Assembly (NCBI GenBank): GCA_012031345.1
Contig: JAAUTS010000001.1
Coordinates: 1 to 60,949, forward strand
Direction of reading: 5' to 3'
Length of the DNA: 60,949 nucleotides
DNA from: Blastochloris sp.
GTDB taxonomy: Bacteria > Verrucomicrobiota > Verrucomicrobiia > Methylacidiphilales > JAAUTS01
Shown here piece by piece: positions 3,510-42,490 of this stretch. A program made the translations under genes and the position numbers. Under the pieces are notes generated by a model. That model worked only from the letters and a program-made list of their open reading frames with translations, did no database searches and was not told where the DNA came from. Each line of letters begins with the position of its first letter. The first letter of the stretch is position 1.

Positions 3510-3620
3510 AACTTGCGCGACCTGCTCTTCGTCTTCAACAAATGATGGACAGGAAGGGGGCCGATGCCTAGCTTTCTTCTTTTAGACAAGCATTTTACAT
3601 CCCTCTGATCCCATCCAATC

Positions 3621-4799
3621 ATGTCCTTTCAACCTCTCGGTCTTAGCGATCCCATCATCCACGCCGTTCAACGTCTTCGTTACATCGAGCCCTCTCCCAT
3701 TCAGACCCAGGCCACGCCGATCCTGCTCGAAGGTAAAGACCTCATCGCTTCCGCCCAAACAGGCACGGGCAAAACCGCTGCCTTCACCCTGCCCATCCTC
3801 TCCAGACTGGCAGCACATCAACCCAAGACGCGCTGCCTCATTCTCGAACCAACCCGCGAACTCGCCGCTCAAGTCGTCGAGTGTCTGGAAGACTACACTT
3901 TTTTCACCGATCTCAGCTTTTGTCTGGTGCATGGCGGTGTGGGATACGGCACCCAAAATGAAAAGTTGGCCAAGCGTCCCGACATCGTGGTGGCCACGCC
4001 AGGTCGGCTTCTCGATCATCTGGAAAACAAAACGCTGAGCCTCTCCGACATCGAGTATCTGGTTCTGGACGAGGCGGACCGCATGTTGGACATGGGTTTT
4101 CTGCCGGACGTGAGCCGCATCATCCGCCAATGCCCGACGGAAAATCGTCAGACCATGCTCTTCTCCGCCACCATCCCTCCTCGGCTCCAGACCTTGGTCG
4201 GCTGGGCCATGAAAACTCCCGAAACCCTCAGCATCGGTCGCAGTGCCACTCCCGCAGAAACCGTGCGCCATGTTCTCTATCCAGTGGCCGCCGATCAAAA
4301 GTTTGAGCTGCTTTTGGCCATTCTGGAAAATCTGCACTACGAAAGCATCATCGTCTTCACCCGCACCAAAATGGGTGCGGACCGCATCTCCGGCACTCTC
4401 GAGCAGGCCGGACACAAAGTGGTCACCATCCACTCAGACCGCTCTCAAGCCGAACGCACCCAATCCCTGGCCTCATTCAAGGACGGCAGCGTAGAAGTGC
4501 TGGTGGCCACCGACATCGCCTCCCGCGGTCTGGATATTGACGATGTGACCCATGTCATCAATTACGACATCCCCGAGAATCCCGAGGACTATGTTCATCG
4601 CATCGGACGCACGGGCCGGGCCAGTCGCAAGGGAGATGCCCTGACCATCTTTACCGCAGCGGAACTTGAGTTGGTGCAGTCCATTGAGCGTTTGATTGGT
4701 GTGGAAATCGAGCGGGTCAAGTTGGACCACTTCCCCTACGTTTACACCACGCTTCTCGATCCAAAGGCCGCCAGCCGTCGCAAGCCCCGGCGTCGCTAA
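3621..4799 (+). CDS. DEAD-box ATP-dependent RNA helicase
   Basis: 392 aa. Q-motif region, AQTGTGKT (motif I), VLDEADRMLDMGF (DEAD), SAT and HRIGRTGRA (motif VI). Confidence 0.9.
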   Translation: MSFQPLGLSDPIIHAVQRLRYIEPSPIQTQATPILLEGKDLIASAQTGTGKTAAFTLPILSRLAAHQPKTRCLILEPTRELAAQVVECLEDYTFFTDLSFCLVHGGVGYGTQNEKLAKRPDIVVATPGRLLDHLENKTLSLSDIEYLVLDEADRMLDMGFLPDVSRIIRQCPTENRQTMLFSATIPPRLQTLVGWAMKTPETLSIGRSATPAETVRHVLYPVAADQKFELLLAILENLHYESIIVFTRTKMGADRISGTLEQAGHKVVTIHSDRSQAERTQSLASFKDGSVEVLVATDIASRGLDIDDVTHVINYDIPENPEDYVHRIGRTGRASRKGDALTIFTAAELELVQSIERLIGVEIERVKLDHFPYVYTTLLDPKAASRRKPRRR

Positions 4800-4911
4800 A
4801 TTTGAGTTAGTTAACCGCGCTGCCCTAGTGAGACTCCTGTGCGGTCTCGGCTCAATACTCTCTTCCCTCACCTCCAACGCTACACTTGAAAAAATCCGGC
4901 TTGGTTTCCGG

Positions 4912-5241
4912 TTAAGCTCCTATGGCCAGCCAATGGAAGGACACGGAATAAACCAGACTTTCCCGCCAAGTGGAAATTTGAGCTCGGAAACCTTCCGGCT
5001 GAACCTGCACCACCTGCAATACCAAACGCGAGGAATGACGTTGATCCATATCAAATCCCGTCAACCCAAGCTGGACTAGGGGCACGGAGGCGAAACTTTC
5101 CGAAAAGGCAACATCCACCCAAAAACAACGCCGGTCTCCCCCATCAACTGCTGCCACATCCGCCAAAGCCCAACCCTCGGTCAATACTCCCACGCAGACC
5201 GAACCCGAAAGACTTTTCCAAGGAATGTAGGATGTGTTCAT
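4912..5241 (-). CDS. H-type lectin domain protein
   Basis: 109 aa. ...FSESFASVPLVQLGLTGFDMD...GFRAQISTW...VSFHWLAIG matches the H_lectin pattern. No signal peptide. Last gene of the 9905->4912 gene string. Confidence 0.55.
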   Translation of the reverse strand: MNTSYIPWKSLSGSVCVGVLTEGWALADVAAVDGGDRRCFWVDVAFSESFASVPLVQLGLTGFDMDQRHSSRLVLQVVQVQPEGFRAQISTWRESLVYSVSFHWLAIGA

Positions 5242-5290: not shown

Positions 5291-5830
5291 CTAATATGCA
5301 TGCAGTTGGCTGATAATCAACCACTGGATAAACCCAAGAACTGCCATGTAGCTCAAACGCTTCCACCAGGGAAGATTAGATCGGAAAGCAGGGGCCAGCA
5401 TTAGCAAGAATAGTACAAACAGAGAATAAACGGGCAAATTCTCTGTATGGGCTGCATTAGTCAGTGTTTTCTCAAAAATAAGGTAAATCACCAGACTTGC
5501 CATACTCCAAAATGAGAGCAGGGCAACATGTAGTTGCACCTTTTTAGTCGAAGATAGAATAATAACTGTCACCAAAGCTACCACGATGACAAGCAGAATG
5601 AAAAAGGATGAAAATTGCTTATAAAAAGCTTCTTTAACCAAACCTAAAATAACGAAACTTTTTAATACATTCAACAGGCAGAGCACAAGACCATGCCAGT
5701 TATCCTGGGATCGTGTGTCACTATCTTCTGGAAAAGGATTTAGGGTTAAAATCCTGGTGTAGTCTTCGAGAAGACCCTTGAAAAAAACCTGCCAATCAAT
5801 CTTTGACATTGAGTTTGAAGAAATAGACAT
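5291..5830 (-). CDS. multi-pass membrane protein, unknown function
   Basis: About 179 aa from the ATG at 5830, with about 5 hydrophobic helices. Overlaps the 3' end of the upstream gene, suggesting translational coupling. Confidence 0.5.
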   Translation of the reverse strand: MSISSNSMSKIDWQVFFKGLLEDYTRILTLNPFPEDSDTRSQDNWHGLVLCLLNVLKSFVILGLVKEAFYKQFSSFFILLVIVVALVTVIILSSTKKVQLHVALLSFWSMASLVIYLIFEKTLTNAAHTENLPVYSLFVLFLLMLAPAFRSNLPWWKRLSYMAVLGFIQWLIISQLHAY

Positions 5831-6539
5831 ATGGTTTTTGTTTAAGCTCGGGACCATAAGCACAGTGAATTTCCAAAGGCTTCCCAGATTCAATGTTTAG
5901 GCTGAACCTCACCCACGAAGGCTTTGTGCGTAGAGATTTAAGATACAGGATTCTTTCCGTGCCGGGTTTTTGATCTCTTAATTGATGGAGGGCCCGGTTC
6001 AGAGTGGAAAAGGAATCTGGATCAGGGGCTAACACCGAGTGCTGCCAAAATTCCAACCTATGCCAACGAATCCATGGAGACTCATTCTTTAGAGAACTAC
6101 TACTGTGAATACTCCGATAGTTATCCACTGTTATTTTATCGTCATGTGGCAATGTAAGCGCCTTAAGATCCGCACCATCCTCTTTTTGAACATTGTTTCT
6201 GAACAGCACCAGCGGCCTGCCTTCTTGAAAGGTGCGGACGAAAACCACCTGACGGGCAACACCCGTGCTTGGTGGAACAGCCCAATAGAGTGATGTTGCG
6301 CCATGCTGACGCCTGATTTTCGCTGACCCTTGGTCCTCCAGTAAAATCCACTCGCGTTTTGGAGAATCGTTATCAACAACTATTGACGATGGAATGGCAA
6401 GTTTGAACACATCCTCCTGCCTGGGATGATCTCCCGGCTTGGCTAGGACAGGTGAAACAAATGCCCATAGACCAAGCAGTTGAAACATTCTCGCAATGTT
6501 CTTCTTCCGAACTTTCATGATATCCAATGACCCGAGCAT
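5796..6539 (-). CDS. secreted protein, unknown function
   Basis: The ATG at 6539 overlaps the stop of the hydrolase gene (TGATG). N-terminal signal-like segment KKNIARMFQLLGLWAFVSPVLA. Confidence 0.5.
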   Translation of the reverse strand: MLGSLDIMKVRKKNIARMFQLLGLWAFVSPVLAKPGDHPRQEDVFKLAIPSSIVVDNDSPKREWILLEDQGSAKIRRQHGATSLYWAVPPSTGVARQVVFVRTFQEGRPLVLFRNNVQKEDGADLKALTLPHDDKITVDNYRSIHSSSSLKNESPWIRWHRLEFWQHSVLAPDPDSFSTLNRALHQLRDQKPGTERILYLKSLRTKPSWVRFSLNIESGKPLEIHCAYGPELKQKPYVYFFKLNVKD

Positions 6540-8020
6540 CAATACCTGATTATGTTGAAAACATCGGCTGAAGGAAGACGCAGGAGCGTAATGTCAACCA
6601 CCGTGGTGCGATGGACTTGCAACAAGCCTTCCAACGCTGAACCGCTTAGAGTGTAACGCACTGGAAGATAGGCAATATCTTCTGTCTCCGGCTCCGTCGC
6701 GCTGATCTCCAAGGTACATTCCCTGACCTGGGATAATTTTGAAACCCAGGTTCCAGCCGATTTTTCAAACTGAGCCAGCCTCAAGTAAAAACAGATGCAC
6801 CCCGGAGTATGCTGGTTGACATGCTTGTCTTCAAACAACTCACGAATGGGCAGAGAGTCTGGTTGATTGACAGGTGCATCGAAAAAAACGTCGAAATGCT
6901 TGACTGGTCTTCCATCCTGATCCCGAATTCGGAAAATCACCTGGGCATGGGGATCATATTGGTTCCGGGGATCCTCCGCCCAAGGCGTCCAACCAGGAGC
7001 CTGTTCTTTGACAACCCGGTCATGACTCTCCCTGGTTGTGTCGTGAAACATTTGGACCAAAGCCCGGTAGGATTGCATGTCGTTTCTGGCAATTGAAAGT
7101 GCCTTAACCAAGAGCGGCAGGACTGAACTCTTGGTTTTACTGCCTGACACAACACCCATGTCTTCACCTCCGTGGGAGCAGAGGTAGGGAATGGCAAAAG
7201 GGATTTCTGATAATCCATTCTTGCCGTTGGAAATGTTGTTGGTCACCACGTAAACACCATCGACGTGTCCCACCCGGTTTTGAAACGAACCCTTGATGCT
7301 TTTGACCTCAGACCAAGGCATCAATGCCTTGTCAGGATCGGGAGTAATCTGGATGTAATTCCAATTCAAGTTTCCGGCGGCAACCCGAACCACACCGTCA
7401 CTGCCGTCTTCTTTGCAATATCTGATCGGATATTCATAAGCCGCAGGATTTGCCTGAGTGCCAATGATGCAATATTCGTGGATATGATAATCTTCCAGCA
7501 TCCGGTTATGCGCAAAGAGAAAGTGCCGGTGGAGGTCCAAGGTTTTTGAGGAGCCAAGTTCCAACTCACCCAAAATTTGCACACCCGGTTCCGCACCATT
7601 CTGAAGAAGGTAACGCCCCCAGCGTGCCATTTGACCTTTGCCGATATGTGCCAACCCACTGCCAAAATTGGCTCCGGCCAGGTGAATCAGGTTGATAATT
7701 GGGGATGGTTTGGGGCTGAAAAGACGAATCCAATTGCGAATCACCAGGGCACCTGTGCTGTGGACAATCACATGAAATCCTGACATCAAAAGATGTGGCT
7801 TGGATATGTGAAGAGCGCGATTTAGTGCCCGCGAGACATCGTCAAGAGTGATCCCATCTTCCATGGATATCCAGCGACTGAGATCTATTTCCTCAATCTG
7901 TGCCCCCATCTTTTGCTGCAAATCAGAAGCAAGGTCTCCGTAAATGTTTTTGATCTGGTCATAGTTCGAATCGTGGCTTTCCGCACTATAACCGTGAATC
8001 AGAAGGATGGGAGGTTTCAT
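6539..8020 (-). CDS. alpha/beta-hydrolase (lipase/esterase-type) with ~250-aa uncharacterised C-terminal domain
   Basis: 493 aa. PILLIHGYS oxyanion region, nucleophile elbow VHSTGA, candidate Asp (GSDGVVRV) and His (CSHGG). No signal peptide. Confidence 0.65.
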   Translation of the reverse strand: MKPPILLIHGYSAESHDSNYDQIKNIYGDLASDLQQKMGAQIEEIDLSRWISMEDGITLDDVSRALNRALHISKPHLLMSGFHVIVHSTGALVIRNWIRLFSPKPSPIINLIHLAGANFGSGLAHIGKGQMARWGRYLLQNGAEPGVQILGELELGSSKTLDLHRHFLFAHNRMLEDYHIHEYCIIGTQANPAAYEYPIRYCKEDGSDGVVRVAAGNLNWNYIQITPDPDKALMPWSEVKSIKGSFQNRVGHVDGVYVVTNNISNGKNGLSEIPFAIPYLCSHGGEDMGVVSGSKTKSSVLPLLVKALSIARNDMQSYRALVQMFHDTTRESHDRVVKEQAPGWTPWAEDPRNQYDPHAQVIFRIRDQDGRPVKHFDVFFDAPVNQPDSLPIRELFEDKHVNQHTPGCICFYLRLAQFEKSAGTWVSKLSQVRECTLEISATEPETEDIAYLPVRYTLSGSALEGLLQVHRTTVVDITLLRLPSADVFNIIRY

Positions 8021-8035: not shown

Positions 8036-8823
8036 TTATTTTGCCAGGACATTCTTGATAAATTTGTCAGTTTCTATAGCCAACTTTTCAAAACCTTTAC
8101 GGTTCGGATGGATTTCGTCATTCCAATCTCCATCTTCAAGCGTTCCCCTCAAGTTCAAGTGATAAAATTTTGGGCAATCCCGCTGAAGACTGGCCAGCAT
8201 ATCGTTGAATTCATCAATCAGAATCCTGGCAATCTCACGCTGCAAAGCTGCATCACGGATTCCACGAGCCTCCATGACGGGCTTCAGCCATGGACCCATG
8301 ATTTTGAAACCAGCGATGCTCGGCCCCACGCTGCTGGGAATGACATAGTCATAACCATGGGCGATCACAGGCAGATTTTCGTTAACTCGGGAAATCGCAC
8401 GGATAAATTTGATATAAGCCTCCTCAATTCGCTTTAATTCTAAGGCAAGGCGGTTCTGGTCAATCAAAGCCTTGGCTTTCATGCCGGATTTGTACGGCTT
8501 GGGAATAAGGTAGGGCAAAGGATCCCCCAGCAAGTCATTCCCCCCCGCGCTGAACAATACCGCAGACCATTTTTGCGCCCGTATTTTTTCAATGCCTTGA
8601 GGTAATCTCCGCTCTCCACAATCGGCACTGCCTCATCCCCCGATTTCTGCAGCATCAAAGTGGCGTAGTTGAAATCCTCAAAGAGCCAGTCCGCCATATT
8701 TTTGAAAAGTGGAAAGTCAAACCACGAATCGCCTTCCACCAAAAGTCTTGGCCAGGTCGGATGTTTTTTGATCGTTCTTAAAAAGATGGCTGGCCTGGTA
8801 ACACTGGATGTGCGTTGGGTCAT
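8036..8823 (-). CDS. SGNH/GDSL-family hydrolase (frame break near 8560-8590)
   Basis: Block I LLVEGDSWFDFP (ORF 8479..8823), block II FSAGGNDLLG and block V DEIHPN (ORF 8036..8557). The two ORFs overlap in a region with A/C/T homopolymers. Confidence 0.7.
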
Positions 8824-8859
8824 ATGATAATTTTCTGGTTAAATTGATGACCGCGCCAC

Positions 8860-9264
8860 TTATTCGATGCGGATCACTGTTACTGATATTCTGCCTTTGT
8901 TGTTGAAGTAAAATCCCGAGACGTCATTGACAAAACACATGAGTTCACCGGAATGATTCGCCTTATAATCCCTTCTGGCTGAGCCAATGGTAAACGCCGT
9001 TGTCATTTTGAAGTTCTGCGTTCCCATCAGGCAAAACCACTTGTCCGAAGGTGCGCGGCGCAGCCATTCGGTCAATGTCATCAGGATATTTACGGAATCA
9101 AAACCGTCCGGAGTGCAGGGAATGGAGGCGTCACTCAAGTCTTCGAGCACCTCCGTTCTGAACTCATAAATACCACCTTGCTCGATCAAGAGTCCTGATG
9201 GGTTCCATTTTTTTTCCGCCCAAACATCAAAACTATAATTCTCGGCGGGCATGAGAGTTGTCAT
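8860..9264 (-). CDS. PA-IL/LecA-like lectin-fold protein
   Basis: 134 aa. The C-terminus ELMCFVNDVSGFYFNNKGRISVTVI parallels LecA [23 protein letters not shown] (recalled from memory). Its ATG overlaps the upstream stop (ATGA). Confidence 0.55.
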   Translation of the reverse strand: MTTLMPAENYSFDVWAEKKWNPSGLLIEQGGIYEFRTEVLEDLSDASIPCTPDGFDSVNILMTLTEWLRRAPSDKWFCLMGTQNFKMTTAFTIGSARRDYKANHSGELMCFVNDVSGFYFNNKGRISVTVIRIE

Positions 9265-9905
9265 ATCCTGATACCACGAACCGCAAATGGAACTTTAGGG
9301 ACTCCGGTCATACTCAGGGTGTTGTCATTAAGCCAATTGTAGTTGAGACCAGCGTCCATCGTATGACCCGCGTTTTGCAACGCGAGTCTGGCCGTCAGGT
9401 TGCCTTCGTGTTTGAAGTGGGCCGTGAATTGGGTTGCATAAAACGATTCGAGCACAAGCAGATCATTATCAATCCAACGCCACTTGTTTTTGTCGGTTTC
9501 TCTGAGATTCAACAATGCCTGGTGAATTTCGTGGTGAATGAACCCCTTGGTAAAACATCTGGAGGTGATGCCTGTGATCTCAATGCCAAAGGAAAATTCT
9601 GAAGTCAAAGCAGAGGTGATCGAAAGACCATACTCGGGAAGACCTCCTGTGATTTCAAATTTGCTTTTGTCCGAAACATTTAACTTGAGTGCATTTGCGG
9701 CACCGAGCGCACTGGCGCAATCAGCCTCGGTTACGCCATCTGCAATCTCCCAAGCATAACCTTCAACATGCTTGAATCTGGGATCGGACAGCCACCACTC
9801 CACTTCCAACAGGGCTCCAGGAATCAATCTTTCCGTGGGTGCTGGTATCAAATACGCACCATAACGTTGTCTCATCTCATACGCAACTTTGGTCAATCCA
9901 GCCAT
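9261..9905 (-). CDS. gasdermin N-terminal-domain-like protein (candidate pore former), no C-terminal tail
   Basis: Start chosen at the ATG at 9905, which has GAGGAGG 5 nt upstream; the track ORF extends to 9989. 214 aa, beta-rich. By eye: LIPAPTERLIPGALL, amphipathic Gly/Ser/Thr strands (FEITGGLPEYGLSITSALTSEFSFGIEITGI), DLLVLESFYATQFTAHFKHEG and TLSMTGVPKVPFAVRGIRI follow the order of gasdermin-N elements. Confidence 0.4.
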   Translation of the reverse strand: MAGLTKVAYEMRQRYGAYLIPAPTERLIPGALLEVEWWLSDPRFKHVEGYAWEIADGVTEADCASALGAANALKLNVSDKSKFEITGGLPEYGLSITSALTSEFSFGIEITGITSRCFTKGFIHHEIHQALLNLRETDKNKWRWIDNDLLVLESFYATQFTAHFKHEGNLTARLALQNAGHTMDAGLNYNWLNDNTLSMTGVPKVPFAVRGIRI

Positions 9906-10031
9906 GAACGCCTCCTCATTATTTTGGTTTTGTAGATATTTCCCATGTCTACTTGACTTTTTGATAGGCATTCTTTGAACTTCAGGCAATTAGGGCTGAT
10001 TCTCTAGTTCACACCTTTGTCACAATAATTT

Positions 10032-10655
10032 ATGAAAAAGACACGGCTACAAATTGTGGATGATCATCCGGCCATACATGTTGCTTTGAGCCACATTATG
10101 GATGCGGCCCAGTATCATCTTGCGGCCTCAGCGTATTGCGCCACAGAAGCAGTGGCTCAATACAAGACCATCCCCATAGATGCGGTCGTGCTGGATCTGT
10201 CACTTCCTAGACATAAAGGTGAAACTGTAATCGATTTTCACCGAAGAAACAAAACCAATGTGCCCATCCTGATCTTTACCGGTTACTGCGATGCCTCGAG
10301 ATTGAGGCAATGCATGAAAAAGGTGCTCTTGGTTTGGTTCTAAAACTTTCACCCGTTGATGAAATCAAACTGGCCCTGGACTTTGTTGCCCGCCAAAGAA
10401 GGCCTTATGTTTCCCCGGCCTTTCGTCCCATGCTTCAAACAATAACAACCGAGGATCAGCACCCGGTTTTGACTCCCAGGGAAAATGAAGTGATTCGATG
10501 CATTGCCCAAAGCATGAGCAACAAAGAAAACCGCCCGCCTTCTGGGTTTGAGCGAAAGCACGGTTAAAATTCACCGCTCCAATCTGATGAGAAAGCTGAA
10601 ACTCCACGACACAGCCGCCGTCACCCGCCACGCTTTGAATCTTGGACTGATTTAA
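10032..10655 (+). CDS. NarL/LuxR-family response regulator (two frame breaks, ~10320 and ~10540)
   Basis: Receiver domain (IVDDHP...VVLDLSLP...) in ORF 10032..10343. The LuxR HTH LTPRENEVIRCIAQSMSNKE... continues in a third frame as ...TVKIHRSNLMRKLKLHDTAAVTRHALNLGLI, stop at 10653-10655. Both breaks lie at A-runs. Confidence 0.75.
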
Positions 10656-10664
10656 GCTGATTTC

Positions 10665-12505
10665 TCAAGGATTGACGGCCTTGATCGAGTCAATGCGAAC
10701 CTGCCGGACATCGCCACTTTCCAGGGGCAGCTCCACGGTGTCGCCCACCTTCTTCTGCTGCAAAGCCTGACCCACCGCAGTGAGGTAAGCCACGATGCCC
10801 TTTTCCGGCGCGGAATCCCAAGCTCCCATGATTTGGTAGCTGAGTTTTTCCGAGGTCTTGAGGTCAGTCAATTCCACCGTGGTGCCGATGTTGACCAGTG
10901 ACGTGTCGGCTCCCTTGAAGTCGGTTCCTTGGGCGCGCAGCAACATGCTTTCCAGCTCCGCCCGGCGACGCATAATGACGCTCTGCATTTCCTTGGCTGC
11001 CTTGAACTCGCTGTTTTCGCGCAGATCGCCGTAGGAACGGGCCACCGCGATGTCCTTGGTGTTCTGGGGAATTTTGTTTTGGATGATGTCCTGCAACTCT
11101 TCCTTGCGCTTCTCCAAACTTTCCCAGGAGACGACCAGAGTGCTGAGATCCTTCTCTTTGTCCTTGGAAGAGGAGCCGCCGATGATCATTTCCTGCACAA
11201 AGGGGTAGAGCTTGACCAGGGCCGCCAGCACGGAACGCTTGTCAAGTTCATCAAAAATCGGACTGAGCATGATGGCCCGGGTGACATCCCGGACCTCATC
11301 GTTGCCCGCACTTTTCAACATCTCGGCAATGAGTTCTTTGCGCGTGACGAAAAGATCCTGGAGCCGCCCGGAACGCTTGCTGCCTTCCAACTGATCCAGT
11401 TCCAACACGGAAAGAATGGCGTAAAGGAGTTGAACGTTGAACAGTTTCTTGATGTCAGGATCCTTCGACTTGCAGATCCAGATGAGGAACTCGAAATGCA
11501 GGTTGCGCTCCCGGATCAAACGTTCGATGGCCGCGATGATCTCTTCCTTGCGTCCGTCCTTCTCGAAGAATCGATGATGACCTCTGCCACCCGTCCGTTG
11601 GCCATGGGCAGGATTTGCATGGTGAAGGTGGGCCAGTTGACGCCGTAGATGGCAGCGGCGCGGCCCACGGCCTTGCCCTGCTTGGAGGCGGTCAGGTTGT
11701 TGATCAGGTTAACCAACTGCTTGGGTTCACGGGGCAAAAGTTTGGTCGTGGCATTGGCCGGAATCTTGGCCTCCAACTTGGCCGCTTCAATCAACTCATC
11801 CCGCATGATGGCCAATTCCACCGCCGAGACCAATTGGGAGCTGGGAACTTTGGAGAGGGTCTCGTCAATATCCGCCACCAGGGTTTCCACCAGGGAGGCG
11901 TCTCCCAGATCTTTGGAATGCTTCAGGGTCTCTTCCAGAGCGGCCAGCTTGGCCTTGGGACCGATCACCTTGGAAACCGAAGCCACCGCCTCGGCTCCCA
12001 GATCCGGCGGAGCTTCGTGCAGGATGATGGTTTCAGAACGTTTGGTTGGCAGGGTGAAGTGTCCGTCTTTCTTCACCGCACGCTTGGCCGCGTCCCACCA
12101 CTTTTTCCAATCCGCCTTCGATACGACCGAAGGGCAGAGCACCGCCTCGATGCGATCAGGCGAAGCCGCAGGCTGGAGGCTCTTCACCACGGAACGCATC
12201 GTAGCCAGAGGATCGGTGGCCGCCTCTTTTTTGACCGCGTCCAAATCGCTCAATTTGCGGCTCTCAATGTGATCGTCTTCCAAAAGCAGCAGCGAACTGG
12301 CGGAGTATTCAAAATCCATGGGGTGTCCGGGTTTGCCGGGAAAATCAATCAGCAAACGCTTGGAGACAAAATCCCGCTCCACAATGCGTCCGGTGCCCCA
12401 GCTGCGGTGAAAGCAGCACTTTCCGGGGAGAAGTTGATCTAATTTTTGCGCCAAGTGAAGAGGCAACCGTTCTGTGTCAACCAACTGTTGTAAATCGCTA
12501 TCCAT
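10665..12505 (-). CDS. large GreA/GreB-domain protein (~613 aa; frame break near 11535)
   Basis: The C-terminal ~150 aa are GreA-like (ARSYGDLRENSEFKAAKE...IGTTVEL...). ORFs 11516..12505 and 10665..11519 join as ...VAEVIID/FFEKDGRKEEIIAAIERLIRERN if one base is restored in gattcttcgag. Confidence 0.65.
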
Positions 12506-17908: not shown

Positions 17909-18586
17909 CTATTTTCTTAAACAGTCCGCTAATACGTCGCGCAAATCCCGTCCCGGTCTGTCCACCAGACGAATCCCCCAGCCCGCTGACCTCGCGCCCT
18001 CTTCATCAAATCTCGGCTCATCCCCCACCAGGATGGCCTGGGAAGCCTCTATTTTAAAGCGTTCCATGGCGATTTGAAAAATTCCAAGATGCGGCTTCTC
18101 CACTCCCACTTCACTTGAAATCACACAGTCCTCAAAATAATCCATCAACTCCAAACCGCTGAGAATTGATCTCAGTCTTCGATCCCAGTTGGATAACACT
18201 CCGAGGCGATAACCCCTCTGCCTCAATTCACTCAAACATCCTTCCACTTCGGGAAAAATTTTCCAAATCCCAGGCCGCGCAAAATACCCGTAGAGTTCTT
18301 CGAAATAATCATTGAAGGGAAAAGCTTCCGGTCTCGGATGCTGCGACCACGCCTCAAGCACCAGCGATCTCCACCATCCCTTGTCATCCTTGATTCTGTT
18401 TCCAGCCACCGGATCCCGCGGCTCAAGTGATTTCCATGCCCTTTTGAATCCCTCCTGTAGAATCAAAGCATCCGCCCTCAAACCGTAATGCCAAGCCATC
18501 TCGGCATAATAGTAGCCCACAGGTTGAGCCAAACGAATCAAGGTCCCACCCACATCGAAAAAAATAACCTGATTCATCTTATCCAT
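17909..18586 (-). CDS. HAD-superfamily hydrolase (REG-2-like subfamily)
   Basis: Motif I-like VIFFDVGGTL, LGVLSNWD and VGDEPRFDEEGA. Confidence 0.65.
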   Translation of the reverse strand: MDKMNQVIFFDVGGTLIRLAQPVGYYYAEMAWHYGLRADALILQEGFKRAWKSLEPRDPVAGNRIKDDKGWWRSLVLEAWSQHPRPEAFPFNDYFEELYGYFARPGIWKIFPEVEGCLSELRQRGYRLGVLSNWDRRLRSILSGLELMDYFEDCVISSEVGVEKPHLGIFQIAMERFKIEASQAILVGDEPRFDEEGARSAGWGIRLVDRPGRDLRDVLADCLRK

Positions 18587-19868
18587 TGAGCCTCAGTTCA
18601 TGCGGATGATTCTTGAGCAGAGCAAGCACTTCCCCGATTAGATAGAGCGAGCCCAGGATCAACGTACTCTTCCCGCTCAAGCGGGCCTGCGCCAACGCTT
18701 CGTTCAGGTCCGTAAATTGCCGGGTTTCCGAGCGCACAAACGCCGTCGCTAATTGCGCGGTTCCCACGCTACGGGGTGTGGCTACGGGAACCAACAGAAC
18801 CAGGCTCTCGCAGGGATCGAGAAGTTGCCCCATGGCTGCCAGCTCCTTTTCTTGGACACATCCGAAAACGATCTGTTCCGGTGGCCGACCAAAACCAGGC
18901 TCGCCAGGACGCCAGCACTCCTTCGATACCTTGGACATTGTGGGCACCGTCCAAAACCCAAGGTGGCTCCCAACTCAACACCTGAAAGCGTCCCGGCCAG
19001 CTTGCCTCGGCCAAACCACGCTCTTTTGCCTCCTCCGTAATCTTCCAACCCCGCTCACCTAACAGCTCCGCCGTCGCTAAAGCCAGCCGTGCATTCCCCG
19101 CTTGATAGATCCCCAGCAGACCCAAATTCCACTCTCGCCCCTGCGACTCAATCTTCAGCGCGGCTGCATCGCCACTCCTCACACATTGGATACCCTTCTC
19201 GGCCCTTGAAACCACACGCACCTCACAGTCCAATTCCCCGGCACGATTCGCAAAAACCCGACTCACACCCTCATCTGTAAATTCTTCCCACAGCACCGGC
19301 ACCCCTTTCTTCAAGATGCCCGCTTTCTCCGTCGCAATTTTCTCCAGCGTGTCCCCCAGATACTCCATATGATCCCAGCCAATCCCCGTAATCACACAAC
19401 ACTCCGGCTCCACCACATTGGTCGCGTCCAGCCTCCCCCCCAAACCCGTTTCCCAGACCACCAAGTCCACCTGCTTTTCCACAAAATGCAGCAGCGCCAT
19501 ACCCGTCATCACTTCAAAAAAGACGCATCTTTCAGCTCCGGACTCGATTCCACCAAAACCCGGATTCTTGTCGTGTGTCGTAGGATCTCCTCCCGCGTGA
19601 TCGCCTCCGTTCCCACCCGGATTCTTTCGCCCACTTCGATCAGGTGCGGCGAGGTGTAAAGACCGGTCCGATACCCGGAGGCCCGCAGAATGGATTCCAA
19701 AAACGCGGAGGTCGATCCCTTCCCATTGGTCCCCGCAAGATGAACAAACTTCAGTTGCTTCTCAGGATTTCCCAGTTTAGCGCAGAGACCGCGCATCGTC
19801 TCCAAGCCCAACCTGATCCCGAAGCGATGCAGGTTGAACAGATACCCAACACACTGCTCGTAGGTCAC
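18579..19868 (-). CDS. folC: bifunctional folylpolyglutamate synthase/dihydrofolate synthase (two frame breaks, ~19510 and ~18800-18950)
   Basis: P-loop HLAGTNGKGST; ...WETGLGGRLDATNV...DGAHN...; the Mur-ligase C-terminal segment GSLYLIGEVL is in the third ORF. Confidence 0.85.
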
Positions 19869-19883
19869 GCAAGTCAGGGCGCC

Positions 19884-20734
19884 TTATTTCGCGCCGAAAT
19901 ACCGCAGGATCTTGACCAGGGTGGCCTTCATTTCCCTGCGATGAACGATGTGGTCGATCAGGCCATGATCCAACAGAAACTCCGAGGTTTGAAATCCCTT
20001 GGGCAATTCCTGCTGCGTCGTCTCCTTGATCACCCGCGCCCCGGCAAAACCAATCATCGCCTTCGGTTCCGCACGATGACCACTCCCCAGCGAACGCAAA
20101 CTCGCCATCACCCCGGCCATGGTCGGATTGGTCAGCACTGAAATAAAAGGCTGCCGCTTCTCCGCCAAACGGGCCAGGGCGCCACTGGTCTTGGCCATTT
20201 GCATCAGGCTGAACATCCCCTCATACATCCGTGCTCCACCCGAGGCAGAAAAAACAATCACGGGCCGCTTTTCCTTCACCCCACGCTCAATTGCCCGCGT
20301 GATCTTCTCCCCACCACCGAACCCATGCTCCCTCCCAAAAAATTAAAATCCATCGCCGCCAACGAAACACGTATCCCGTCCATCTCCCCCCAACCACTCG
20401 TCACCGCGTCGGTCAGCCCAGTTTTCTTTTTATAATTTTTTAGCCGATCCGGGTAACTGGTCACCCCGGTGAACTTCAAAATATCCACTGAAGACAGGGA
20501 GGCATCCAACTCCTCAAAGCCGTTCTCATCACACACACTCAAGAGCCGACTCCAGGCACTGATCGTCATGTGATGCTCGCACTTGCCACACACCATCAGG
20601 TTGTCTTCCAGTTCCTTGTTGAACAGAACCTCCCCGCAGGAAGGACACTTGGTCCAGAGCCCCTCGGGAATCTCCTTCTTCTTGGTGCGGGAGGGAAGTT
20701 TGCCTAGATTTTGTGGTTTGGGAAAAACTGCCAT
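19884..20734 (-). CDS. accD: acetyl-CoA carboxylase carboxyltransferase beta subunit (frame break ~20290-20300 in a G-run)
   Basis: Zn ribbon CPSCGEVLF...CGKCEHH; [11 protein letters not shown] then, in another frame, [28 protein letters not shown]. Confidence 0.9.
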
Positions 20735-20774
20735 AAAGGTAAGTGAGTGAGAAAGGATGGTCCGGCTTGCCGCA

Positions 20775-21440
20775 TCAACCCCGAGCCACGGTTAGCACGG
20801 CCAAGTGCTCCGCTCCGGCCTGGTGAAGGACTTGGGCACAGGCATCAACCGTGGCTCCCGTGGTAAAGACATCATCAATGATTAGCAGCCTGCGCCCCTT
20901 CAGGTCAAACCCACTCTTCACGCAGAAAGCTCCCTTCTGATTCCGTAAACGCTCGCTGCGCCTTAGCTTGGCCTGGGTCTCCGTCTTTTTCACCCGCTCC
21001 AAGACCTTCCAAACCGACAAACCCCGTCGCCTGCCCAGCATTCTGGCCAGTTCCTCCGCCTGATTGAATTCCCGCTCCCGTTTCCGCAGCGGATATAAAG
21101 GCACCGGAACCAAAGCATCCCAGCTTTCCTCCGCATAAAATCGTTCAAAGCCCTCCTCCAACCAGGACGTCAATTGCGGCAAATGATGAAACTCCTTGTT
21201 GTATTTGAATTCGTGGATCAACTCCCGCACCGCTCCCTCCGCCCGATACGCCGCCCGCGCCCGACTGATATGCCAGCGACGCCCCGCACAGTTGCTGCAT
21301 CGGAAGATCTCCGGCATCTCCCCCTCGTAAGGCTCTCCGCACCGTTCACACCAGCGATCTCCCAGCCCGGACATCATTCCCGGCAACTCCGCCACCGGAA
21401 ACAACACATCCCAAAGCCCTTTTTTCCACTCTCTCATCAT
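20775..21440 (-). CDS. comF: ComF-family phosphoribosyltransferase-domain protein
   Basis: Start at the ATG at 21440 (ATGA overlap with the upstream stop). Cys-rich N-terminus CERCG...CSNC and PRT motif LLIIDDVFTTGAT. The 110-aa Gly/Val-rich upstream extension of the track ORF overlaps the CPBP gene and was discarded. Confidence 0.75.
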   Translation of the reverse strand: MMREWKKGLWDVLFPVAELPGMMSGLGDRWCERCGEPYEGEMPEIFRCSNCAGRRWHISRARAAYRAEGAVRELIHEFKYNKEFHHLPQLTSWLEEGFERFYAEESWDALVPVPLYPLRKREREFNQAEELARMLGRRRGLSVWKVLERVKKTETQAKLRRSERLRNQKGAFCVKSGFDLKGRRLLIIDDVFTTGATVDACAQVLHQAGAEHLAVLTVARG

Positions 21441-22309
21441 CCCGCCTTCCCTCCGCTTTTTCCCCAGCCAGGCCACAACACCATCAGCAACATTGCCAAC
21501 AACAACAACTCCGCCGACAAACCGGACAACACATCCGCCTGAAACCACCAGGACCCTGCGCCTCCGCGCCACTCCGTTACGTGATTGAGACTTTTCAACC
21601 CCATAACCCAACCCATGTGCAGCCCCATACAACCCCACAGATGTCCCTGACGATAAACCAGCGCGCACAACACTCCCCCCACCAACAACAGCGTCACCCA
21701 CCTCAAGGCTAACATCTCCAGATTTCCCAACTCCATCAACATCCCTCCCCAGGCTTCCCATCCCGTCCACCAGACCACTTCACCCGGCGGATTTTCCGCC
21801 TTGAGATAGTGTGTCGTGGCAAAAAAGAGACAAGTTACCCCACCCACCCACCAGGCTTTGCCCGGCCACATCCTCAGCAAAACTAAAAAAAAGAGGCCCC
21901 GGAAAAGAATCTCCTCCAACACCGCCACCGCTCCCGCACTGGCAAAAAATTCTACAAACTGACCCAACTCCCCAGTCCCCTTCCATTCCCGTTGCCCCAT
22001 CCACATCTGCATCAGAAACAAAAGACCCACCGATAACACACCCCAGCCCATCCACCGTAACCACTCCTTCGGAAGTTGCCCCCGATCCCTCAGCCCTAGC
22101 TCCGACCAGCTCCGGATCCCCCAATATCGCGCCAGAGGCCAAAGCAAAAGCAAGGCCGTCACCATCAACACCCGGTTGAACACCCGACGAAAAGGCTCTT
22201 CCCCAGGAAAAAATCCGTCCCAAACCCAAAAAGCCCAAGGTGCCACCACCGCACTAAGCAACACAATCCCCCCAAAATAAAACAAGATCCCCAACAACAC
22301 ACGACGCAT
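21437..22309 (-). CDS. CPBP (CAAX) family intramembrane glutamic protease
   Basis: 290 aa polytopic. EEILFRG motif, then FATTHY and later His motifs. Confidence 0.8.
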   Translation of the reverse strand: MRRVLLGILFYFGGIVLLSAVVAPWAFWVWDGFFPGEEPFRRVFNRVLMVTALLLLWPLARYWGIRSWSELGLRDRGQLPKEWLRWMGWGVLSVGLLFLMQMWMGQREWKGTGELGQFVEFFASAGAVAVLEEILFRGLFFLVLLRMWPGKAWWVGGVTCLFFATTHYLKAENPPGEVVWWTGWEAWGGMLMELGNLEMLALRWVTLLLVGGVLCALVYRQGHLWGCMGLHMGWVMGLKSLNHVTEWRGGAGSWWFQADVLSGLSAELLLLAMLLMVLWPGWGKSGGKAG

Positions 22310-22358
22310 AGACTCATCTTTGAGGAATTCCCCACTCAGAGCAATCCTTTCCCCCCAT

Positions 22359-22411
22359 CCCCTATATCAAGAGGGGCAGAAAGGGCCGAAGGCCTGCTTC
22401 CGGGTGTGTTT
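22359..22411 (+). repeat. structured intergenic repeat, family 1, copy a
   Basis: cccctatatcaagaggggcagaaagggccgaaggcctgcttccgggtgtgttt. Contains hairpin CCCCT-N8-AGGGG and a small ggcc-loop-ggcc hairpin. Near-identical copies at 24558, 40562 and 40771. Confidence 0.8.
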
Positions 22412-22548
22412 CCCCGCTAGGACGATTTTTAAGGCAGAAATAAGTTTTCAGTTTTTAGTGTTCAGTTTTCAGCAACTAGAAACCCGAAACCCGTAACTTA
22501 GCTTCCCCCCCACTTAATTCGTTCTTGCCTCACCCCGCCCTCCCCACG

Positions 22549-23561
22549 ATGATGTTTCCAGTGCAAACTGTGGCTCCTGCTTCCAAAACCCAAGACCGAC
22601 TTGTGAAACCTCTTCCCCCCCTCGAATTCGAAAACCCATCATCGAATTGGAAAAGATGTTGGCCGAACTCAAGGACCATTCCGACGAACATCAAATGGAT
22701 TTCGACTCGGAAGTCGCCCGCCTCAACCAAAAAATCGAGGAAACCCGCACCCGCATTTATCAAAACCTGACCCCTTGGCAGCGGGTCCAAATCGTCCGCC
22801 ACACGCAGCGCCCTTACACCCTCGACTACATTTCCCGCATCTTCACCGACTTCATCGAACTGCATGGTGACCGCGCCTACGGCAACGACAAAGCCCTTAT
22901 CGGTGGCTTGGCCCGGCTCGACGAGCAGCCCGTCATGATTCTCGGCCACCAAAAAGGCCGCAACACCAAGGAAAATCTCATGCGCAACTTCGGCTGTGCC
23001 CACCCGGAAGGTTACCGTAAAGCCCTCCGTCTCATGCGCCTCGCCCATAAATTCCAGATCCCCATCATCGCCTTCATCGACACCCCCGGTGCCTATCCCG
23101 GCGTCGCGGCGGAAGAACGGCAAATCGCCGAAGCCATCGCCGTCAACATTCGCGAAATGTTCAACTTTGAAGTTCCCATCCTCGCCGTTGTTATCGGGGA
23201 AGGTGGCAGCGGCGGGGCCCTCGGCATCGGAGTCGCCGACCGCGTTCTTATTCTCGAAAACGCCTACTACTCCGTTATCTCCCCGGAGGGCTGCGCTGCC
23301 GTCCTTTGGAAAGACCGCGCCTTCGCCCCCCAAGCCGCCGCCGCCCTCAAGATGTCCGCCCCCGACCTTCTCGACGCCAAATTGGTTGATGAAATCATCC
23401 CCGAGCCCCAGGGCGGTGCCCACCACGACTGGGAACTCTCCGCCCAAAACGTCAAAAAAGCCCTGCTCAAAAATCTAGCTCCCCTCCTCAAACTCAGCTC
23501 CAGCAGCCTCCTCGACAAACGCTACGACCGTTACCGCGCCTACGGCATGTTTACCGAATAA
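22549..23561 (+). CDS. accA: acetyl-CoA carboxylase carboxyltransferase alpha subunit (frame break ~22630)
   Basis: N-terminus ...LEFENP (ORF 22525..22770) joins IIELEKMLAELK... (ORF 22647..23561). FIDTPGAYPG and VIGEGGSGGALG motifs. Confidence 0.9.
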
Positions 23562-23582
23562 GCAACCTCCCAACTTCTCTAT

Positions 23583-23640
23583 TTCGAGATCAAAGATTCG
23601 AGATCAGAAATTAGAAATTCCCCCTTCCCCGCACAACTGC
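23583..23640 (+). repeat. low-complexity intergenic repeat, family 2, copy 1
   Basis: ttcgagatcaaagattcgagatcagaaattagaaattccc..ccccgcacaactgc. Related copy at 50172..50212. Confidence 0.6.
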
Positions 23641-23652
23641 TAGTCTTCACTT

Positions 23653-24013
23653 ATGACTAACGAAGCCTCCGCCCAATTCGATCTCATGCTCAGCCAACAA
23701 CCTCGTCGCGAGGAACTCGACACCCGCGACGCCGGTGCGAACCCCTTCAAAACAGTGGTTGATCCCCTCATGCGTTATCCGACTCAAAAGGCCTTTTGAA
23801 CTCATCGACAACCACGACAACTCCCTCGAAAGCTACATTTCCTCCGGACAACTAAGCCTTGAGTCCTACAAGGAATACATAGAACTCTTCGCCCGTTGCC
23901 TCCGCGAAACCATGGAAACCAAAGAAGGAGTCTCCTACCTGCTCAAATCCTGTGGCTTCGATTGTCCAGCCGATCAAATCAATCTACAGCCGGACTGGCG
24001 TTGGAAGGAATGA
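23653..24013 (+). CDS. hypothetical protein (probable frame break in a T-run near 23785)
   Basis: ATG at 23653 (MTNEASAQFDLML...PTQKAF) joins ELIDNHDNSLESY... of ORF 23735..24013 if one T is removed from tttt. Its stop overlaps the next start (ATGA). Confidence 0.4.
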
Positions 24014-37678: not shown

Positions 37679-38605
37679 TTAACCGACATGCCAACCCGTT
37701 TGGCGAGAGAATAGATCATGCCTTCCCCTTGTCCGCTTCCGGCACCAAAACCGCAGGGCAGACGTGTGAACGGTGAAGATCACCGGCACCTGGCCATGCA
37801 ATTCCCCGTCCACCTCCACCGGCACCACTTGGTTGGCCGATACCTTGATCCGTTTCGATTTCAGATACGTCACGTCCTTGAAACGTGTATGGCTCCCACT
37901 GACAATTCCCTGAAAATAGCGGATCAGATCCAGGTGGGTCAGATTTTTGAACACACAAATATCCAACAAACCATCCCCCATCTCCGCATCCGGGAAGAAA
38001 TGGAAAGGTCCGCCGTAAAATCGGCCATTCCCCACCAACATGAAACTACCCTGGATGGTTCGATGCCCCTCCGCCTCCACGGTCAGAATCGGAGGTTTCA
38101 GAGAAGCCAGTTGTGCCGCAGTCACCACATAACTCAGGGGTCCCAGCGCATTTTTAAAATTACGATCCGTGTTCTGCACGGTCTGGGCATCAAACCCCAC
38201 CCCGGCCAGTTGCACAAAATACCTTCCGTTGGCCTCCGGTAAATCCAGATGCCGCACAAAACCACGACGGATGATCTCAATCGCCTTCTCCAATTTCGAG
38301 GGAATCCCCAGTTCCATGGCAAAGACATTGACCGTCCCCACGGGCAAGAGCCCCAAGGCGGAACGACTCCCCGCCATGCCGTTCACCACCTCGTTGATCG
38401 TGCCATCCCCACCCGCAGCGATGATGATGTCATCCCCCCGTGCGGCCGCTTGTTTGGCCAGATCGCAGGCATGTCCGGCCCGTTTTGTCGTCAACAAATC
38501 CGCTTCGGGAAACAAATCCTGCAACTTACGGATCAGAAATTGGGCGCGTTCTCCCTTGGCAGCAGGGTTTAAAATGATAGTAATGGCAGGCTTTGAAGGA
38601 ATCAT
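37679..38605 (-). CDS. diacylglycerol/lipid kinase family protein (YegS-like)
   Basis: Start at the ATG at 38605, which avoids overlap with the divergent gene. IILNPAAKG and IIAAGGDGTINEVVNG. Confidence 0.8.
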   Translation of the reverse strand: MIPSKPAITIILNPAAKGERAQFLIRKLQDLFPEADLLTTKRAGHACDLAKQAAARGDDIIIAAGGDGTINEVVNGMAGSRSALGLLPVGTVNVFAMELGIPSKLEKAIEIIRRGFVRHLDLPEANGRYFVQLAGVGFDAQTVQNTDRNFKNALGPLSYVVTAAQLASLKPPILTVEAEGHRTIQGSFMLVGNGRFYGGPFHFFPDAEMGDGLLDICVFKNLTHLDLIRYFQGIVSGSHTRFKDVTYLKSKRIKVSANQVVPVEVDGELHGQVPVIFTVHTSALRFWCRKRTRGRHDLFSRQTGWHVG

Positions 38606-38611
38606 GGTCGA

Positions 38612-39960
38612 ATGAATAGGGTTAAACGCTTGCTGCTGGGTCTGACATTGGTCCTGGCACTCGGAATTCTGGGTGCCTTGGGCTGGATTCACTATTACCT
38701 AAACAGCCCGCGTATGAGCGAGAAGATTCGCCTCATCGTTTCGCAGCGCTTCGACACTCGCCTCGAATTCAACCGCCTGCACATCAATCTTTTCTCCGGC
38801 ATGGAAATCGGACAATCCCGTCTCCTCACCTCCGAAGAAAAAGGCCGGGAGTGGGCCTCTCTCGATCAGGCCCTCTTGGAATACTCCCCCCCTCAGCCTT
38901 CTCAAAAACACCGTCGAAATCAACACCATCCGCCTCAACGAACCCCAGATTCACTTTGAGCAATATCCCGACGGACGCTGGCGTCTCCCCGGCAAAGCCA
39001 CGGAAGAAGCCCGCCAGATGACCCTCAAAACCGGTATCTTCCGCTTCAACATCCTGCTCAAAAAATTTCTCCTGAACGAGGGTAAGGTCCGCGTCTCGAA
39101 TGCCGCCAAGGAAATCCTCTTCGCCGCCGAGGGCGTCAACGTGCTCGGCGAACTTCAACTCCTCAATCATCTCAACGATGCCAAGGGCACCCTCTCCATC
39201 CGCCAACTTCAACTCGGCTCCAAACTCCACTTCACCGACACCCGTTCCCCCTTCGAGTTTGCCGACTCCGTTCTCAAGCTCAATGAACTCAAGGGACACG
39301 TGCATGGAGGCACCTACGAAGGCGCCGCCCAACTCAACACAGGCGTCGGCGGTCCCGGCTTCCTCCTGAATTTATCGCTGCGGGAAGTTGATCTGGCCAG
39401 TCTCCTCCCTGATCTCTCCAGCGGGAACAACCTTCTCCAGGGCCTGCTCCAACTTCAGGTCCAGCTCGCAGGCGATCTCAATCAACCTCTCCTCATGCAA
39501 GGCACAGGCTCCATGCAAATCGGACGCGCCCGCCTCACCGGCATCCCCGCCCTCGACAAACTCGGCACCATGCTCAAACTCCCTCAAATTCGCGAAACCG
39601 AATTTGAATCCATCCAAGGTAACTACAAAGTGGCCGATCAACGAGTCACCTTCTATGAACTCGAAGCCAAATCCCCCGACCTGCAAATGACCGGCAGCGG
39701 CTTCCTCGGCTTTGACCGCAAACTCGACATGGATGTTCTTCTCATCCTTTCCGCCAAGCTCGCCGCTCAAATCCCCCCGGAAGCCCCAGGCTCGCTTTTC
39801 CTCCGGTGAAAACGGCACCCGCAGCATCACCTTTAAACTCAGCGGCAGCCTCGATGCCCCGGTCAGCAACCTGGGGGAAAAACTTGCCCTGCCCGAAACC
39901 CCCATTAATCCCGACGCCCAAGCCTCCCTGCCCGGCACCCCGGAACTTTTCTCCCCTTGA
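38612..39960 (+). CDS. AsmA-family-like envelope protein (two frame breaks, ~38880 and ~39790)
   Basis: N-terminal TM. The C-terminal pattern ...YKVADQRVTFYELEAKSPDLQMTGSGFLGFDRKLDMDVLL... is typical of AsmA C-terminal regions. Three overlapping ORFs. Confidence 0.55.
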
Positions 39961-40542: not shown

Positions 40543-40561
40543 TTTTCAGTAATTAGCCCCT

Positions 40562-40615
40562 CCCCTATATCAAGAGGGGCAGAAAGGGCCGCAGTCCCAC
40601 TTCCGGGTGTGTTTT
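40562..40615 (+). repeat. structured intergenic repeat, family 1, copy c1
   Basis: cccctatatcaagaggggcagaaagggccgcagtcccacttccgggtgtgttt. Confidence 0.8.
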
Positions 40616-40770
40616 TCCCACACTCGAAACCCGTAACTCGTAACTCGAAACCCCTCCCCCCTCGCCCGCTTCCGGGTGTATGTTTTTTCTTCGCTCAAAA
40701 ACTGACAACTGAACACTGACCACTGAAAACTCCCCTCTTTCCTCCCTTCGAAACTCGAAACCTTCTTCGT

Positions 40771-40824: not shown

Positions 40825-40867
40825 TTTTTTCAGCAACTAGAAACTCTCCCCCCCCTCCCCATCCAAC

Positions 40868-42484: not shown

Positions 42485-42490
42485 CAAAAT

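Follow-up and report, generated by a model that had tools for sequence, protein, structure and literature searches.

Organization of the locus

We describe here a gene for a gasdermin homolog in a 60,949-nucleotide stretch of DNA (the window) from Blastochloris sp., a member of the Verrucomicrobiota (assembly GCA_012031345.1, contig JAAUTS010000001.1). The open reading frame (ORF), 9261-9905 on the reverse strand, encodes a very divergent bacterial gasdermin that consists of the pore-forming domain only, and it is the first gene of a six-gene reverse-strand operon in which genes for a PA-IL-like lectin, an SGNH hydrolase, a PlaB-type phospholipase A, a secreted protein, and a membrane protein follow, the genes either overlapping or being separated by gaps of no more than 36 nt (Table 1). 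The start codon, ATG 9905, is backed by a GGAGG at 9915-9911 and by homologs, 58 of 66 of which have their N-termini in the same alignment column. The C-terminus reads ...GVPKVPFAVRGIRI, ending in VPFAVRGIRI, and is followed by TGA at 9263-9261; the three bases of this stop codon are in common with the 134-residue lectin-like ORF (8860-9264), whose ATG lies at 9264-9262, to give ATGA. An earlier reading of this DNA, made from its letters (the sequence-only reading), had described this ending and this overlap, and we confirm both on the reverse strand (ATGA 9264-9261). The junction of the two ORFs (9255-9275) is free of homopolymers.

Table 1. Features of the gasdermin locus, in window coordinates.
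Feature	Coordinates	Strand	Remarks
GGAGG ribosome-binding site	9911..9915	-	5 nt before ATG 9905; read from sequence
Gasdermin homolog, 214 aa, tail-less	9261..9905	-	ATG 9905, TGA 9263-9261; operon gene 1
Conserved alternating hydrophobic/polar stretch 1, residues ~73-112	9570..9689	-	Candidate membrane-inserting beta-hairpin; period-2 power 1.3-1.6
Conserved amphipathic stretch 2, residues ~153-192	9330..9449	-	Candidate second hairpin; period-2 power 1.0-1.9
ATGA stop/start overlap, gasdermin homolog and lectin-like ORF	9261..9264	-	Read from sequence
PA-IL (LecA)-like protein, 134 aa, leaderless, sub-threshold	8860..9264	-	ATGA-coupled to gasdermin gene
SGNH/GDSL hydrolase, leaderless	8036..8823	-	One frameshift in A5/A6 run ~8574-8589
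PlaB-type phospholipase A, 493 aa, leaderless	6539..8020	-	Alpha/beta-hydrolase and PlaB C-terminal domain
Secreted protein, no family assigned	5796..6542	-	Probable start ATG 6518, Sec-type signal peptide
Multi-pass membrane protein	5291..5893	-	Last gene of operon; hydropathy maximum 3.12, several hydrophobic segments
NarL/LuxR-type response regulator (receiver and GerE helix-turn-helix)	10032..10655	+	Divergent; broken by homopolymer frameshifts

A divergent bacterial gasdermin

Single-sequence searches with the 214-residue protein (Pfam, PADLOC, NCBIfam, phmmer against PDB, and a word-indexed homolog search) returned no match, and a genome scan with the single protein found no relative. 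The only method that recovered the family was an exhaustive phmmer search with the same protein, in which 1.84 billion cluster representatives were scanned and 83 relatives were obtained at E<=1e-3, of which 43 were at E<=1e-10, nearly all of them 200-232 residues long. The family comprises at least 83 clusters at 50% identity, with proteins of about 200-230 residues, and includes members from metagenome-assembled genomes (MAGs) of Verrucomicrobiae and Bacteroidetes. The curated models of Pfam, PADLOC, and NCBIfam do not recognize it.

A family profile (A1) of 67 members drawn from the phmmer relatives has only two significant matches in PDB, both of them the Vitiosangium bacterial gasdermin (bGSDM; 8sl0_A, E 7e-7, and 7n51_A, E 1e-6), and the alignment spans the whole domain, with profile positions 11-215 corresponding to Vitiosangium residues 13-220. 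In the last aligned strand VPFAVRGIRI (VPFAVRGxxI in the family) pairs with LVFGFKCFEI, residues 211-220 of the 266 in the Vitiosangium protein. An AlphaFold2 model computed from the family alignment has a predicted local distance difference test (pLDDT) value of 88.9 and a predicted template modeling score (pTM) of 0.85, and when this model is compared with PDB by Foldseek all of the top 14 matches are gasdermins, the top six with probability 1.00. The best are those from Runella (7n52), Vitiosangium (7n51), and Bradyrhizobium (7n50), with E values of 1e-6 to 5e-5 and query template modeling scores (TMq) of 0.49-0.60, and the next ranks are taken by the Trichoplax gasdermin, GSDME, a bGSDM pore, and GSDMB, with RCD-1 further down. 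The mammalian GSDME and GSDMB are retrieved by structure only (E 1e-3 to 4e-2), and identity to the solved gasdermins within the structural alignments is very low, at 10-13%. The gasdermin call of the sequence-only reading is thus upheld by the profile and by the predicted structure, which gives a gasdermin fold and not another one. Its placement of the end of the ORF at the last strand of the N-domain also holds when the comparison is made with the bacterial protein; the by-eye alignment to human GSDMD was not reproduced by sequence, hhalign of the family against GSDMD residues 1-275 giving E 0.11 in a different register.

Family-averaged hydropathy over the 67 members shows two stretches of conserved hydrophobic/polar alternation (Table 1), against a background period-2 power of 0-0.6 over most of the N-terminal half. 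Alternation of this kind is what one would expect of segments able to refold into membrane hairpins, and the two stretches may correspond to the gasdermin hairpins, a candidate mapping made from sequence. The first coincides with the least confident region of the model (pLDDT 61-73 at residues 71-100). From its homology to the known gasdermins, we would expect the protein to form pores.

Absence of the inhibitory tail

The end of the window protein is the end of the family. The C-termini of 45 of 66 aligned homologs fall in the last column of the query, 57 of the 66 lie within two residues of it, and the longest extension is 11 residues; the phmmer matches end at query residues 208-214, and these ends are the C-termini of the matched proteins themselves. 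In the clade the C-terminus lies 3-4 residues past the conserved VPFAVRG strand, and in one relative (P0013) it is identical, VPFAVRGIRI. In the Vitiosangium bGSDM a fragment of 237 residues is the active product of cleavage of the 266-residue protein, with removal of a 29-residue C-terminal domain (PMC10153256), and the inhibitory peptides described for bGSDMs are 17-67 residues long (PMC13475620). The last residue of the clade corresponds to Vitiosangium residue 220, about 17 residues short of the cleavage site, and the clade therefore has neither the cleavage loop nor the inhibitory peptide.

A conserved extra C-terminal segment that had been lost in this copy would have been a simple account of the missing tail, and it was looked for and not found. 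The sequence-only reading had also offered an indel, or a single gasdermin-lectin fusion read as two ORFs. This was not borne out, because the homologs end at the same residue, the junction has no homopolymer, and none of the 83+46 retrieved relatives has a lectin-like C-domain or a C-terminal fusion to any other domain. On the evidence of these alignments the missing tail is authentic and a property of the whole family, and sequencing error is excluded at this stop. As the inhibitory peptide is really absent, the gasdermin homolog needs a different restraint, as had been argued before.

Palmitoylation of an N-terminal cysteine is crucial to toxicity of the Vitiosangium bGSDM (PMC10153256). 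Only one of the 67 family members has a cysteine in its first eight residues, and the first in the window protein is residue 63. No cysteine column is conserved in the 67-member alignment (the maximum is 14 of 67), and we therefore rejected a disulfide restraint of the type found in the Trichoplax gasdermin (TrichoGSDM). Nor is there an evident protease. We sampled the surroundings of 28 related loci, which represent 16 independent contexts (17 with the window), and neither Pfam labels nor scans gave a protease able to activate the protein in any of the 17, several of the neighbors being of no known family; the sole peptidase label, Peptidase_S74, is weak and belongs to two proteins of the type IX secretion system (T9SS) kind about 1.8 kb away in L026. 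That the clade is naturally without an inhibitory tail, without a lipid-anchored cysteine, and without an activating protease is firmly supported by these comparisons, and we consider it very probable that it is a tail-less clade of bacterial gasdermins.

The operon and its island

The product of the second gene is plausibly LecA-like, which is the name that the sequence-only reading had given it. The name is favored by a match to the Pfam PA-IL model (PF07828) at E 0.0097 and by a pairwise BLASTP alignment to LecA at E 3e-5 over 93 columns; against it, the Pfam match covers residues 102-132 only and at 16.4 bits is below the gathering score of 22.5, and the comparison with LecA in PDB gives E 1.5. 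The motif NDVSGFYFNNKGRISV aligns to LecA with the signature NDV.G.Y.NN.G..SV kept, and we take the D and NN of NDV.G.Y.NN to be the Asp and Asn-Asn Ca2+ ligands of LecA. The protein resembles Pseudomonas aeruginosa LecA in this C-terminal signature, in its length of about 130 residues, and in being leaderless, with neither a signal peptide nor a transmembrane segment found. It differs in its sub-threshold Pfam match and in that the LecA segment with His50 and Gln53 falls in an alignment gap, so that galactose specificity is unsupported. A word-indexed search gave no homologs, tblastn gave no match in the 28 related loci (16 other independent contexts), and an AlphaFold2 model from the single sequence is unusable (pLDDT 38). 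Lectins of the LecA type are found mainly in the cytoplasm, and lysis sets them free (PMC4463410).

Two lipase genes follow, and no signal peptide or transmembrane segment is found in the product of either. The SGNH hydrolase matches Pfam Lipase_GDSL_2 below the cut-off (E 4e-4) with a C-terminal fragment, and its characteristic blocks I, II/III, and V (GDS, G, GxND, and DxxH) are present, GDSW in one frame and GGND and DEIHP in another. The PlaB-like protein matches PlaB of Legionella pneumophila (PDB 6zth) with a phmmer E value of 1.3e-33; residues 5-230 and 277-490 align, covering both domains, with conservation of the triad positions Ser (HSTG), Asp, and His. It is like PlaB in having no export signal and unlike it in that about 30% of the sequence is unaligned, a comparison that concerns the neighbor and not the gasdermin homolog. 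The PlaB prototypes are leaderless and surface-exposed with an export route that is unknown, and PlaB is a hemolytic virulence factor (10.1101/2020.09.01.246603). We note as a separate observation that a full-length homolog of this Legionella virulence phospholipase occurs here in an environmental-looking genome.

The secreted protein begins MKVRKKNIARMFQLLGLWAFVSPVLA/KP. Its longest ORF, from TTG 6542, overlaps the stop of the PlaB-like gene by 4 nt, and from ATG 6518 the gap is about 20 nt; it has no match in Pfam, NCBIfam, PHROGs, or PDB, and the membrane protein (5291-5893) has none in Pfam. Because of the analogy with lipase effector-immunity pairs, these two proteins encoded behind the lipase genes are candidate immunity factors, or the secreted one might be an accessory protein. 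On the other side of the gasdermin gene the divergent response regulator is recognized from two ORF pieces, which match Pfam Response_reg at E 7e-13 and GerE at E 3.5e-3; the junctions are at A-runs. Single-base frameshifts in A-runs at 8574-8589, ~10317, and ~10527 split the otherwise intact SGNH hydrolase gene and the response regulator gene, and such frameshifts are typical of long-read indel errors and call for caution with the other ORFs of the window.

The island has a GC content of 0.46-0.49, compared with 0.53-0.56 in its flanks, and the flanks contain housekeeping genes, for a DEAD-box helicase and Ham1 on one side and for GreA on the other. Between 5291 and 10655 there is no protease, integrase, or recognized defense gene by Pfam and PADLOC, and no secretion-system gene. 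An Rfam scan of the window returned nothing.

Genomic contexts of relatives

Envelope hydrolases adjoin the gasdermin gene in four of the 17 contexts (the window, L016, L003-L006, and L008-L010). In L003-L006, which carry a 219-residue subfamily, a 593-residue leaderless protein with lysozyme-like and PG_binding_1 domains is encoded directly upstream (3921-5702 in L003), and in L016 (relative P0009) a 521-residue leaderless DUF5675-SH3_3-Phage_lysozyme protein is encoded 8 nt downstream (3536-5101), with the stop of a gene for a 529-residue SGNH hydrolase overlapping the gasdermin start. The lysozyme domains of these two groups are 48% identical over 216 residues (E 1e-45), compared with about 27% for their gasdermin partners, and in an all-against-all BLASTP of the neighbors this domain is the only family common to distant loci. 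At the P0014 loci (L008-L010) a gene for an LCAT/PGAP1-like lipase lies directly upstream. The adjoining enzymes of all four contexts have neither a signal peptide nor a transmembrane segment. We considered and rejected orthology of the window PlaB-like lipase with the P0014-adjacent LCAT-like lipase, as BLASTP gives E 1.4 with similarity at the nucleophile elbow only; by sequence the two have a broad class in common and are not orthologs.

Regulators also adjoin in four of the 17 contexts (the window, L026-L028, L014/L015, and L013). A Response_reg-GerE protein of the same class as that in the window is encoded 160 bp upstream of the gasdermin gene at the P0119 loci (L026-L028), which are of Bacteroidetes type, a sigma-54 activator is present in L014/L015, and extracytoplasmic function (ECF) sigma factors in L013. 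Downstream of the gasdermin gene, L026-L028 have a LytTR-domain protein and then two T9SS-tailed proteins of about 680 residues.

A few relatives have neighbors of a different kind. In L007 the gene follows one for a TIR-SLOG protein (3-2246), L003 has an island (8087-11196) with SLATT_1, DUF4231, TIR, and Tn3/DDE transposases, both of these being neighborhoods of the conflict-system kind, and in L017 DruA and a transposase lie 4-5 kb away.

The genes downstream differ from locus to locus, coding for a transmembrane protein, a methyltransferase, a lysozyme, or being absent altogether. Stop/start overlaps of 4 nt are seen with unrelated partners in L009 (8654-8657, with a 379-residue transmembrane protein) and L016 (2872-2875, with the SGNH hydrolase), so that coupling of the ATGA type is common among family members and is no special property of the lectin pair. 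In L002 a short ORF downstream of P0004 (769-1017), truncated or frameshifted, begins MRFLHLSDLHFH, which we take to be a metallophosphoesterase-like motif.

Discussion

The reading that we favor is one in which the gasdermin homolog would be gated by expression and concentration and not by proteolysis. On induction of the operon it would oligomerize in the cytoplasmic membrane of the producer, and the pore, or the ensuing lysis, would let out the co-translated leaderless lectin and lipases; the release cassette would then be a gasdermin-based analog of holin/type 10 secretion (T10SS) or of bacteriocin-release proteins, with a parallel in the GSDMD-mediated release of leaderless cytokines. Both the gating mode and the release function are ones that we infer. 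The grounds for them include the recurrence of envelope hydrolases and regulators beside relatives, the PlaB prototypes, which reach the surface without an export signal, the LecA-type lectins that lysis frees, and the leaderless muramidases beside two other subfamilies, which is what a holin-like partner would need; toxins and enzymes without leaders are, moreover, already known to be released in the holin manner (PMC10847048, PMC10109510, PMC12150058). The statement as a whole, a gasdermin pore gated by expression and independent of cleavage, which releases or aids the leaderless enzymes encoded with it, is tentative, and we hold it to be possible rather than probable; a release or lysis function of the tail-less gasdermin, taken by itself, is somewhat more doubtful. 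More doubtful again is the general form, that a widespread protease-independent tail-less clade might be the membrane-breaching part of cassettes by which leaderless lipases, lectins, and muramidases are released or lysis is brought about, under transcriptional control (two-component, sigma-54, or ECF regulators) in place of cleavage, as a counterpart of holins and the T10SS and a parallel to unconventional secretion of the GSDMD type.

Several observations weigh against the release reading. Pore formation itself rests on homology at about 13% structural-alignment identity. bGSDMs truncated at the cleavage site are toxic (Johnson et al. preprint), so that a constitutively tail-less form needs some restraint; the neighboring proteins of no known family could be novel proteases or inhibitors. 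In about half of the contexts (~9 of 17, one of them in a Verrucomicrobiae MAG) the gene stands alone amid unrelated genes, no partner is obligatory across loci, and the hydrolase association may be partly chance. The two relatives in defense-island-like settings (L007 and L003) favor an immune role. The family was also not found in phage collections (IMG/VR in three scans, BFVD by Foldseek, and PHROGs), so that a phage origin is not supported and the protein is not a phage holin substitute.

The possibilities that have to be weighed against release are, in order of weight, a defense effector, an exported toxin, a role other than pore formation, a trans-inhibitor, and an artifact. Canonical bGSDMs are defense effectors (Johnson et al. 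2022), and the clade could likewise be a cleavage-independent anti-phage or abortive-infection effector, intrinsically inactive until an infection cue (a signaling nucleotide, an altered membrane or lipid, or a partner protein, for example) leads to cell death, with the lipases as co-effectors. Phospholipases do take the effector place of gasdermins in some CARD-NLR systems (PMC13236601), and the TIR-SLOG, SLATT_1/DUF4231/TIR/transposase, and DruA/transposase neighbors of the three relatives described above point in the same direction. We nevertheless regard this as unlikely, since a sensor, an NTPase, a TIR domain, and a protease are all missing from the window island, PADLOC returns nothing for any island protein, most contexts are not defense islands, and release or antagonism is the better fit for the lysozyme/peptidoglycan-binding partners and for the candidate gene of a periplasmic immunity-like protein. 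The gasdermin-like protein could instead be cargo itself and, once released, make holes in the membranes of prey or host along with the lectin (for targeting) and the lipases, the membrane of the producer not being the target. The union of a lectin-like protein, two lipases, and a pore-former in one operon, the downstream secreted and membrane proteins that could be immunity factors, and a family without a self-directed protease switch all agree with this. No component has a secretion signal, however, the island has no secretion-system gene, something must still breach the producer's membrane, and the known bGSDMs have no preference among lipids by which the producer's own membranes would escape (PMC10153256), and we find the cargo proposal distinctly unlikely.

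With only 10-13% identity to solved gasdermins, the clade might also have kept the fold and lost pore formation, serving in lipid or membrane binding or as a scaffold for the neighboring enzymes, and the loss of tail, cysteine, and protease could mark a lost death function. The strict amphipathic alternation in the two hairpin regions across 67 diverse members would be costly without membrane insertion, and makes such a non-lytic job improbable. Very improbable is the proposal of the sequence-only reading that the ATGA-coupled lectin-fold protein is a stoichiometric antitoxin-like trans-inhibitor in place of the C-terminal peptide. The overlap implies coupled translation and some restraint is truly needed, but the partner is unique to the window locus, with no tblastn match in the 28 related loci, the downstream genes vary, and similar overlaps join gasdermin genes to unrelated partners in L009 and L016, so that the family cannot depend on the lectin-like protein; a purely local lectin/gasdermin interaction at the window locus is possible. 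Finally, the homopolymer frameshifts in the SGNH hydrolase and response regulator genes, all within 1.5 kb, could prompt the view that an indel made a false stop, with the true product being a gasdermin-lectin fusion or a normally tailed gasdermin. Given a stop position that is conserved family-wide (including the VPFAVRGIRI end of P0013), a junction free of homopolymers, and no fused relatives, this is scarcely credible.

The nearest known systems resemble the clade in different respects. It has in common with the bGSDMs of Runella, Vitiosangium, and Bradyrhizobium (7n50-52, 8sl0) a homologous pore-forming domain of similar size in which the candidate hairpin regions correspond, with template modeling scores of 0.5-0.6 between the clade model and the inactive-state structures and a full-length profile match at E 7e-7. 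It is unlike them in having no cleavage loop, no inhibitory peptide of 17-67 residues, no palmitoylatable N-terminal cysteine, and no adjoining caspase-like, S8, or other protease, and in being missed by the Pfam and PADLOC models. A pore-forming domain alone is found in TrichoGSDM (8jyv/8jyw) and in Neurospora RCD-1 (8jyy/8jyz), both of which are Foldseek matches and are activated without cleavage (PMC13475620). These proteins are eukaryotic, however, and the restraint is an intermolecular disulfide in TrichoGSDM and the need for two allelic partners in RCD-1, whereas the clade has no conserved cysteine column (at most 14 of 67) and no paralog pair was seen. The holin/endolysin release systems (type 10 secretion, TcdE, and bacteriocin release) are similar in that the gene for a membrane-breacher accompanies leaderless cargo, a leaderless muramidase being present in relatives L003 and L016, and in control at the level of expression. 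They differ in that the clade would be a soluble gasdermin-fold beta-pore former and not a small helical holin, and no spanin is present.

The bacterial gasdermins described to date are latent suicide effectors, freed by a neighboring protease that removes a short tail. We found no description in the open-access literature of bacterial gasdermins without an inhibitory peptide, nor of gasdermins tied to lysozymes or lipases, and the clade is an undescribed one whose N-domain-only form was previously described in Trichoplax and fungi (Neurospora). It shows that cleavage-independent gasdermins occur in bacteria too, and it leaves one to ask what keeps a bare pore-forming domain harmless. It also offers the testable hypothesis that gasdermin pores serve protein release or bacteriolysis and not only immunity, and if this is true the release cassette could suggest an export route for PlaB-type phospholipases. 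As Pfam, PADLOC, and NCBIfam do not see the family, its members are at present annotated only as 'hypothetical protein'.

Two features of the window away from the gasdermin locus deserve mention. A second low-GC island at ~42000-50000 (GC 0.46-0.50, compared with about 0.55) is probably another horizontally acquired block, and an unusually strong negative GC skew of -0.27 to -0.38 extends over several kilobases at ~18000-24000 and 38000-42000.

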